Source: a virus (lineage: Duplodnaviria; Caudoviricetes). Taken from it: a DNA stretch of 64,000 nucleotides. The position numbers and the translations under genes were made by a program. Location of the stretch: the IMG/VR virus record IMGVR_UViG_3300031134_000004, positions 128,001 through 192,000 of that record; one strand, written 5' to 3'. This document shows positions 28,219 through 29,400 of the stretch, piece after piece. Numbering within the stretch: the first letter of the stretch is position 1; every line of letters begins with the position of its first letter. Below the pieces are notes generated by a model, which worked only from the letters and a program-made list of their open reading frames with translations, made no database searches and was not told the DNA's origin.

Positions 28219-29400
28219 ATGAACCAAGCAACTCTCATCGCCAACGACAACAACATGATCAAAACCCTCGTGCGCGGTGCGTACGACGTGCAAAAGCTGC
28301 GCGTGCAAATGGGTAACCGTGTGGCTGGTAACTTCCGCGCCAAGCTCGGCATGACCCCTGACGGCATGAGCGAAGACGACCTGGAAAAAGAACAAAAGAA
28401 AGTCCTGGACGTTCTGCGCGCTTCGTACGTTCGCATCACCGACGGCATCATCGCTGAAGGTGGCGGGATCGAAGGCGGCAAGCTGCCAACAGCCAAGAAG
28501 TTCGTGGGTGATGAAATCATCAGCACCTACACCGAACTCGTTCTCGTCGAACAATACATGAGCTTGCTCGGCAATGAAGAGAAGCACTTCCAACATCTGG
28601 GTAAAGTGTTGGCAGGCATTCCGATTTACGATCAGTTCCTGTCGAAAGTACGTGGCTGCGGCACCGCCATGGCAGGCGTGATTCTGTCGGAGATCAACAT
28701 CCACCGCGCCGAGTACGTCTCGAGCCTGTGGGCTTACGCTGGCCTGGACGCTGTCTACGTGGCTGAGTACACCGACGACAAGAACAAGGTGCACCAGATC
28801 CCAGCGTGGAAGGTCGATGCGCACTACGATGCCGGCAACACTGACGACTTCCTGGCTGAAGGCAAGTACCCAATCACCATGACCTCGGTTGGTCGTTCGC
28901 GTCGTGAAGTGTGTCTGGTTGACCGCGAGTACACCACCCGTGAAGGTGACACTGCAACGCGCAAATCGATCACGTACAACCCGTTCCTCAAGACCAAACT
29001 GATCGGCGTGCTGGCAACGTCGTTCCTGCGTTCGGGCGGTACGGTGCTGGTCAACGGCGATCGTCTGGGTGCTGCTAAGCGGGCTCTTCTGGCCAAGGAA
29101 CACGGCTACACGGGTGAGAAGGACGAAGATCAGCAAAACGCCTTCCTGCGCTCGAAAGGTTTTACTGTGGAAGTGGACCGTAGCGAATACGCTGCTGCCT
29201 ACTACAACTACAAGAACCGCATCGAGAACGATCCACGTCACGCAAGCAAGACCGACGGCCACCGTCATGCCATGGCGCTGCGCTTTGCAGTCAAGCGTTT
29301 CCTGGCTGACCTGTACCGTCACTGGCGTCCACTGGAAGGCTTGGCAGTTGCACCAGAATACTCGGAAGCCAAGCTGGGTAAAGTGCACGGCAAAGCTTAA
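28219..29400 (+). CDS. tasA: Nop-domain (IS110-related) RNA-binding protein, TasA-like, 393 aa
   Basis: RBS aaggaaa, ATG 28219. N-terminal coiled coil LVRGAYDVQKLRVQMGNR; FLSKVRGCGTAMAGVILSEI...SSLWAYAGL (Transposase_20/Nop-like); YNPFLKTKL and HRHAMALRFAVKRFLADLY. No RuvC or HNH motif seen. Confidence 0.85.
   Translation: MNQATLIANDNNMIKTLVRGAYDVQKLRVQMGNRVAGNFRAKLGMTPDGMSEDDLEKEQKKVLDVLRASYVRITDGIIAEGGGIEGGKLPTAKKFVGDEIISTYTELVLVEQYMSLLGNEEKHFQHLGKVLAGIPIYDQFLSKVRGCGTAMAGVILSEINIHRAEYVSSLWAYAGLDAVYVAEYTDDKNKVHQIPAWKVDAHYDAGNTDDFLAEGKYPITMTSVGRSRREVCLVDREYTTREGDTATRKSITYNPFLKTKLIGVLATSFLRSGGTVLVNGDRLGAAKRALLAKEHGYTGEKDEDQQNAFLRSKGFTVEVDRSEYAAAYYNYKNRIENDPRHASKTDGHRHAMALRFAVKRFLADLYRHWRPLEGLAVAPEYSEAKLGKVHGKA

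Follow-up and report, generated by a model that had tools for sequence, protein, structure and literature searches.

A 64,000-nucleotide stretch of viral DNA (the window, positions 128001-192000 of the 224,654-bp IMG/VR record IMGVR_UViG_3300031134_000004, which is 84% complete) contains an intact gene for a 393-amino-acid protein, P0001, that is a TasA member of the TIGR-Tas systems and carries two large insertions in its Nop domain (Table 1). With good confidence, this tasA gene and the guide array next to it can be viewed as a self-contained TIGR-TasA system with two parts, encoded by a nucleus-forming jumbo phage of the phiKZ-like type, in which the insertions are lineage-specific elaborations and the ribonucleoprotein (RNP) binds its target without cutting it. 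An initial annotation, made from the sequence alone, had proposed that this nuclease-less protein is a programmable binder, such as a transcriptional roadblock, a competitor blocker or a recruiter; the core of this proposal, a DNA binder that does not cut, fits the TasA fold, the protein sequence and the adjacent array. The same interpretation has already been published for other TasA proteins so, judging from the 2026 experiments on those proteins, the reading of TasA as a programmable binder or repressor is not new; for example, binding of target DNA and repression of transcription, both without cleavage, have been shown for MbTasA (Xu et al. 2026, 10.64898/2026.09.09.750476).

The assignment of P0001 to TasA is based on its fold, its sequence and the adjoining array. 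An AlphaFold2 model built on 120 relatives (predicted local distance difference test score (pLDDT) 93.6, predicted template modelling score (pTM) 0.89) consists of a coiled coil (helices 3-42, 52-74 and 104-131) and a Nop fold, with no HNH or RuvC domain, and this combination identifies the protein as TasA. The top Foldseek matches of this model are TasH and TasR (probability 1.00), and VIA-align placed it closest to TasH (9vzx, Z 19.3, 219 residues aligned) and TasR (9mty, Z 17.3, root-mean-square deviation 2.2 Å), with lower matches to IS621 (Z ~13) and Nop5/Prp31 (Z ~7). At the sequence level, a phmmer search of Protein Data Bank (PDB) sequences matched only TaTasR (9mty, E 1.7e-7) and SpTasH (E 4.4e-6), and the sole match in a Pfam scan was a sub-threshold one to Transposase_20 (E 0.021). 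Among the PHROGs, the protein belongs to phrog_4285 ('transposase'), and the alignment of 383 of its residues to 247 profile positions was a first sign that it contains extra material. A homologue search found 1458 relatives, and an exhaustive search found 1707 representatives at 50% identity. A megablast search of positions 26000-31000 against cultured phages gave no match, and the sole cultured-phage homologue found was ORF034 of Ralstonia phage phiRSL1 (annotated 'transposase', 29% identity), which has the compact form.

The guide array that accompanies this gene ends 50 nucleotides 5' of the tasA start codon and contains 9-nucleotide repeats, AGTCACCCA and AGTGNATCA, that alternate every 18 nucleotides and are separated by spacers of ~9 nucleotides. 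This is the dual-repeat TIGR architecture defined by Faure et al., in whose account most arrays have 5-15 units (PMC12045711, section 4). Since the array opens and closes with a AGTCACCCA-type repeat and the AGTGNATCA-type repeat has a free central base, AGTCACCCA is the probable edge repeat and AGTGNATCA the probable loop repeat. In arrays of TasA systems, two repeats of 8-12 nucleotides alternate, and each spacer is preceded by box C (CCA) and followed by box D (UG), with covariation of the boxes between the two repeats. Here, repeat 1 ends in CCA (C in 55/55 copies, C in 55/55 and A in 38/55) and repeat 2 in TCA; the UG of box D is found in 46/54 copies of repeat 2, and repeat 1 has UC instead, a pattern that appears compatible with, and not identical to, the box C/D motif of the TasR consensus. 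No second array of the same kind was found in the whole 224.6-kb genome. In addition, a terminator scan identified a strong terminator 3' of tasA and none between the array and tasA, so the two look like a single transcription unit.

No HNH or RuvC domain was found in P0001 by the Pfam scan, and its model begins with the coiled coil at residue 3, which bears out the initial annotation in stating that an N-terminal DEDD/RuvC domain and an HNH motif are missing and that the protein starts directly with the coiled coil, formed there by the helices at 3-42 and 52-74. Its description of the protein as 'nuclease-less' is appropriate for DNA-nuclease domains and too broad as a blanket term, as a Tyr/His dyad for metal-independent processing of the guide precursor (pre-tigRNA) has been kept. 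In SpTasH, the Y289/H296 dyad cuts pre-tigRNA (PMC13421893); in P0001, Y381 aligns to Y289, H390 is located two residues past the position aligned to H296 and, among the 120 relatives, H390 is invariant and Y381 nearly so. Because the SpTasH dyad is conserved as Y381/H390, P0001 probably has RNase activity for guide processing. The observation that the catalytic S-G motif of IS110 is not evident is literally correct and overlooks an invariant G225-R226-S227 directly after the first insert. This triplet (28891-28899) is invariant in 16 diverse TasA relatives, nearly invariant in the 120, and located in the loop region, after the helix-hairpin-helix of the Tnp domain, that contains the catalytic serine of IS110 recombinases; a profile search of the PDB that started from P0001 did not reach IS621, so S227 is no more than a candidate counterpart of that serine.

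The insertions themselves were delimited by comparison with 285-amino-acid TasA relatives that are 45% identical to P0001. The segment from AGLDAV to GRSR (178-225) contains 48 residues in P0001 and 7 in these compact relatives, the segment after SFLRS (271-324) contains 54 residues compared with 6-9, and the coiled-coil tip (75-90) contains 16 compared with 7. Therefore, the ~50-amino-acid insertion that had been proposed after SFLRS is confirmed as residues 272-321. The other proposed insertion, of ~70 amino acids, is real and was given borders that are too wide, since only residues 180-222 (+42 amino acids) are extra relative to the 285-amino-acid proteins and the hairpin from GRSR to KSIT (225-253) is common to the whole family. 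The larger figure is a fair one if TaTasR is the reference, and it can be traced to the whole segment being ~60 amino acids longer than in that protein (an AGLD-to-NPFLK gap of ~76 residues in P0001 and ~16 in TaTasR).

Both insertions are predicted to be well folded. Insertion A is modelled as strands at 178-185, 191-194 and 220-225 plus a helix at 196-204, and insertion B, which directly follows the helix at 255-271, is modelled as a hairpin (275-283), two helices (285-294 and 303-312) with a variable acidic linker between them, and a strand (317-320). The pLDDT of each exceeds 90 both in the full model and when residues 172-330 are modelled separately (pLDDT 93.1), and both inserts are present at near-constant length in 104 of the 120 close relatives. 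Among relatives with two inserts, the core has a mean pairwise identity of 61%, compared with 41% for insertion B and 35% for insertion A, which makes the latter the fastest-evolving part of the protein; insertion A is also acidic (net charge -4 in P0001, median -3 across the clade).

Neither insert has a recognisable nuclease fold, or any other known fold, in the structure and sequence searches that were made, so the outcome that the initial annotation had named as contradicting a non-cutting role, namely inserts that fold as a nuclease domain, did not occur. For example, a VIA-align comparison of the 172-330 sub-model with 48,161 PDB chains had a best Z of 2.9 (a WWE domain, over insertion A) and a Z of 2.8 to a LEM/SAP-type helix-extended-helix over insertion B, both far below significance. 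A Foldseek search with the inserts, as the same annotation had suggested, was made against the PDB with this sub-model and returned nothing at E <= 0.001, and a shape search of the ESM Atlas returned Tas fragments only. Atlas feature and structure look-ups with each insert alone gave nothing above chance, and Pfam scans of 47 insertion-B pieces found no recurrent family. The similarity of insertion B to a helix-extended-helix may be considered a candidate lead.

Variation at these positions is widespread in the TasA family. Among 156 representatives, lengths occur in many combinations (0-80 amino acids at the tip, 4-143 at site A and 6-80 at site B), which marks all three as hot spots where insertions recur throughout the family. 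In a tree built from core columns after removal of the variable segments (quick IQ-TREE search, SH-aLRT support only, midpoint root), a branch with 98% support has 34 of the 37 two-insert representatives on the same side, which suggests that the two-insert form marks one lineage, and expansions at A alone or at B alone are scattered (at least 26 and at least 12 changes, respectively). Dual-repeat Tas proteins have been described as keeping a compact Nop core (10.64898/2026.09.09.750476), and the two-insert, dual-repeat TasA differs from this published statement. In addition, related loci with and without inserts have the same 36-nucleotide dual-repeat array beside tasA, with near-identical repeats, which indicates that the inserts do not track guide architecture, unlike the situation in stem-loop systems.

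The viral context of this lineage is also distinctive. The major capsid protein matches phrog_3231 and shares 58% identity with its counterpart in Burkholderia phage FLC9 and 46% with the one in Ralstonia phage RP12, and phiKZ-like phages dominate its 268 matching records. Outside the window, the genome encodes a 647-amino-acid homologue of chimallin (phiKZ gp054; E 6.8e-22, 25% identity), the presence of which indicates that this phage is probably nucleus-forming. Chimallin was found in each of five large IMG/VR records that contain an insert-type TasA (E <= 4e-80) and in none of five records with a compact TasA, three of which are at least 94% complete. Within this set, the insert lineage is restricted to phages that encode the shell protein, an association that may be due to shared descent only.

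From these features, it can be proposed how the system would function. The array and tasA would be transcribed together, TasA would dimerise via its coiled coil and bind the repeats through its Nop domain, and the Tyr381/His390 dyad would cut the precursor inside the edge repeat to release 36-nucleotide tigRNAs. Each RNP would then bind an 18-bp DNA site, with one 9-nucleotide spacer pairing to each strand and, as no DNA nuclease is present, stable binding would block transcription or replication of the target. Since the first paired guide nucleotide is located at the unwinding junction (10.64898/2026.08.11.744272), a target would be expected to read as spacer A and then spacer B in reverse complement.

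The likely position of the inserts relative to guide and DNA can be predicted by comparison with characterised proteins. Insertion A begins two residues past the position aligned to SpTasH K180, a residue that sits near the tigRNA ends (PMC13421893). PlTasA has three accessory hairpins, in the order B, A and C, of which hairpin B adjoins box D, hairpin A is the wedge-loop equivalent and hairpin C points at the DNA-unwinding junction (10.64898/2026.08.11.744272). When mapped to these hairpins by the order of secondary-structure elements, insertion A would occupy the hairpin-B position, the 225-253 hairpin the wedge position and insertion B the hairpin-C position, so the inserts would build on positions near the guide and the junction that are already known to vary; insertion B would also be within the 'insertion 1' segment (CTD2-CTD3) of Xu et al. 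(10.64898/2026.09.09.750476). In such an arrangement, insertion A would be next to the position oriented towards box D and the ends of the tigRNA, and insertion B would leave helix alpha-4 beside the unwinding junction. The most likely role of the inserts is to adjust how the RNP assembles or engages its target, or to provide a lineage-specific surface, and they would add no catalysis.

Several points weigh against this proposal of guide-directed binding without cutting. The 108 adjacent spacer pairs of the array, tested in four arrangements against the 224.6-kb genome, gave no self-target at 0-1 mismatch and only a control level of matches at 2 mismatches, and none of 169 guides from related phages matched this genome. 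The TasA proteins for which repression has been tested experimentally are all of the stem-loop type or from other clades, and it is unclear in which compartment of a nucleus-forming phage the RNP would act. In addition, where the inserts sit relative to RNA and DNA was deduced from secondary-structure order and short pairwise alignments instead of the superposition of a complex, and the acidic character of insertion A argues against its direct contact with nucleic acid.

Other functions for the inserts, or for the protein as a whole, were also considered. For example, the inserts might recruit a separately encoded effector (a nuclease such as the phage RuvC, a subunit of RNA polymerase or some other enzyme), so that cutting or modification would occur in trans. 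They are folded, conserved in length and without relatives in fold, insertion A combines an acidic character with faster evolution than that of the core, as might be expected of a surface that faces another protein, and a RuvC gene is located 4 kb upstream of tasA in the window and in one close relative. However, this gene encodes an ordinary RuvC-like resolvase (phrog_159) that is 21-68 kb from tasA in five related genomes, and compact TasA proteins with the same array type manage without inserts. An all-versus-all comparison of open reading frames (ORFs) from six other loci identified tasA as the sole gene shared beyond the closest relatives, and divergent loci have only tasA and the array in common, in agreement with the remark that TasA is without clear associations with other proteins (PMC12045711, section 5). 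A predicted complex of TasA and the phage RuvC (score 0.00, mark 0.32) counts neither for nor against binding. The suggestion of the initial annotation that the inserts dock a partner such as the phage RuvC or RNA polymerase therefore finds no support, as they also resemble no known interaction or nuclease domain, and a recruiting function is considered unlikely. A comparably low probability is assigned to the inserts being an adaptation to the phage nucleus, in which they could serve as a handle by which TasA is imported through the chimallin shell, kept out of it or docked onto it. The chimallin homologue and phiKZ-type major capsid protein of this genome, the distribution of chimallin between insert-type (5/5) and compact-type (0/5) records, and the grouping of the two-insert type in the family tree are all consistent with such an adaptation, but one lineage that has both traits by ancestry alone could produce the same association, no known import signal is like these modules, and TasA proteins from outside the lineage also have insertions at these sites.

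A function directed at RNA, in which the RNP pairs with host or rival transcripts as its box C/D small nucleolar ribonucleoprotein (snoRNP) relatives do, would be in keeping with the Nop domain shared with these RNA-targeting particles, and the cytoplasm of a cell infected by a nucleus-forming phage would be expected to offer RNA and not phage DNA. It is nevertheless very improbable, given that all characterised Tas proteins, two TasAs included, target double-stranded DNA, each strand of which pairs with one spacer (PMC12045711; 10.64898/2026.08.11.744272) and that the locus comparison found no fibrillarin, L7Ae, methyltransferase or other RNA-modifying gene linked to tasA. The 'transposase' labels of phrog_4285 and the phiRSL1 homologue, along with the weak Transposase_20 match, could suggest a relic fragment of an IS110-type transposase without guide function, yet this is already contradicted by the lack of a DEDD/RuvC domain, by nearest structures that are Tas proteins and not IS621, by the regular 54-unit array attached to the gene and by the strong conservation of residues in the family, and it is almost certainly incorrect. 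A broader and speculative possibility, also considered unlikely, is that the inserts form a protein-interaction platform that couples a non-cutting RNP with 54 guides to the compartmentalised biology of jumbo phages, via shell transit or docking or via an unlinked effector, with silencing of host or rival DNA outside the shell, and with the tip, A and B as a surface repeatedly rebuilt in an arms race.

Table 1. Positions of tasA, its protein segments, the TIGR array and other features; coordinates are those of the window, except for the chimallin homologue.
Feature	Position	Strand	Description
tasA coding sequence, 393 amino acids	28219..29400	+	coiled coil and Nop domain, without DNA-nuclease domain
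Ribosome-binding site AAGGA	28206..28210	+	8 nucleotides 5' of the tasA ATG (sequence read)
Coiled-coil tip, residues 75-90, ~+9 amino acids	28441..28488	+	alignment with compact relatives
Insertion A, residues 180-222, +42 amino acids	28756..28884	+	two strands, short helix, strand
Basic beta-hairpin, residues 225-253, family-wide, opens with G-R-S	28891..28977	+	alignment and model
Insertion B, residues 272-321, +50 amino acids	29032..29181	+	beta-hairpin, two helices with linker, strand
C-terminal loop with Y381 and H390 (putative processing dyad)	29359..29388	+	alignment to TasH
Dual-repeat TIGR array	26195..28167	+	~109 repeats, ~54 tigRNA units of 36 nucleotides
Intrinsic terminator, strong	29411..29448 (also given as 29411-29438)	+	12-bp stem then T run, 3' of tasA
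GC-rich hairpin	26069..26092	+	directly 3' of the stop codon of the upstream 207-amino-acid gene (sequence read); likely end of the preceding transcription unit
Chimallin homologue	G000:C1:25415-27358 (L009:910-2853)		match to phiKZ gp054

Additional features of the locus were noted during this analysis. Homologues of tasA share a start position with the ATG at 28219 in an alignment, and an alternative TTG start at 28135 was dropped, as it would translate the last array repeats and the homologues use the ATG. The hairpin that likely ends the preceding transcription unit was missed by the simple terminator scan because its T tail is short. Long ORFs are found antisense to tasA (28177-29622 (-), 481 amino acids) and to other real genes (821-2395 (-), 3024-5195 (-) and 9118-11130 (-)), and these are probably shadow ORFs due to codon composition. 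An ORF of 1180 amino acids at 31175-34717, which has no PHROG match, is syntenic in the contig of the closest relative (L004:2819-6376; 43% identical, best segment 373 amino acids). The DNA sequencing runs that cover positions 26000-30000 are from phyllosphere and biofilm metagenomes, and no RNA sequencing runs are listed for this region.

The arrays of this and related phages also have features of their own. Spacers that follow AGTGNATCA are purine-rich (A at position 1 in 30/54, A or G at positions 3-4 in ~46/54) and many begin with ATG or ATA, and those that follow AGTCACCCA are unbiased; this bias might stem from an extended repeat, from a preference for certain targets or from the mode by which units originate. 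In related jumbo-phage loci (L010-L018, L002, L005 and L006), the array is mostly upstream of an insert-type tasA and ~0.3-2.2 kb in length, and in L018 it is downstream. Duplicate records of the same contig aside, no guides common to the arrays of related loci and that of the window were seen. In phiRSL1, an unannotated 1.4-kb gap after ORF034 (NC_010811 14217-15643; L003:5978-7404) has an 18/36-nucleotide periodicity with repeats AGTCACCC and AGTGACCC, which makes it likely that this cultured jumbo phage has a TIGR array that its annotation missed.

Of the Tas types, TasA is understood least, and its natural targets and role in phage biology are considered open questions (10.64898/2026.09.09.750476, Discussion). 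In the literature examined, no account was found of a dual-repeat TasA lineage with large, well-folded insertions in the Nop domain, of three fixed, recurrent insertion sites (one at the tip, one that follows the helix-hairpin-helix and one that follows alpha-4), or of one TasA architecture linked to chimallin-encoding jumbo phages with very long arrays, so these features appear to be new. The presence of a DNA-binding RNP in a phage that shields its own DNA in a protein shell poses the question of where, and on which target, it acts. In addition, the inserts mark surface positions that tolerate additions of 40-140 amino acids, knowledge of which is of use when compact repressors or activators are engineered from TasA.

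The closest known counterparts of this system are FpTasA, MbTasA and PlTasA (PMC12045711; 10.64898/2026.09.09.750476; 10.64898/2026.08.11.744272), which likewise consist solely of a coiled coil and a Nop domain and lack a DNA nuclease. They are also phage-encoded, located beside a dual-spacer guide array and expected to be RNA-guided DNA binders or repressors. In contrast to compact, dual-repeat TasA proteins, P0001 is ~100 amino acids larger, owing to its two folded inserts and longer tip; its array has ~54 units instead of the usual 5-15 (PMC12045711), and its phage encodes chimallin. Both the TasA tested as a repressor and the TasA with a solved structure are from clades other than that of P0001. 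The phiRSL1 ORF034 product is an example of the compact form in a cultured phage, as it lacks the two insertions (a match of 316 amino acids, in an annotated coding sequence of 345) and is followed by the periodic 1.4-kb stretch.

TaTasR (9mty) and SpTasH (9vzx, 9w03) have the same coiled-coil and Nop core (Z 17-19, 22-26% identity over ~200-220 residues) and the same dual-repeat, 36-nucleotide guide type as P0001, which has also kept the Tyr/His dyad of SpTasH. Unlike these two proteins, P0001 is without RuvC or HNH and has a 50-amino-acid module after alpha-4; its segment from the helix-hairpin-helix to alpha-4 is ~76 residues long, compared with ~16 in TasR. The IS110/IS621 bridge-RNA recombinases (8wt6, 8wt9) share a homologous RNA-binding domain (Z ~13) and the logic of a dual-segment guide, whereas P0001 lacks a DEDD RuvC domain, is accompanied by neither transposon ends nor a bridge RNA, relies on an array that supplies many guides, and appears to have the catalytic-serine loop replaced or expanded. 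The similarity to Nop5 and Nop56/58 of box C/D snoRNPs is only a distant one of fold (Z ~7), and P0001 is without the N-terminal domain through which those proteins recruit fibrillarin, their Nop domain being one that binds a K-turn together with L7Ae. Finally, a guide-directed block of rival elements without cutting is analogous to the action of type IV systems, of type V-M/Cas12m and of engineered dCas9, the proteins of which are unrelated to TasA; TIGR guides differ from those of such nuclease-free CRISPR effectors in having two 9-nucleotide spacers that pair on opposite strands and in needing no protospacer-adjacent motif.

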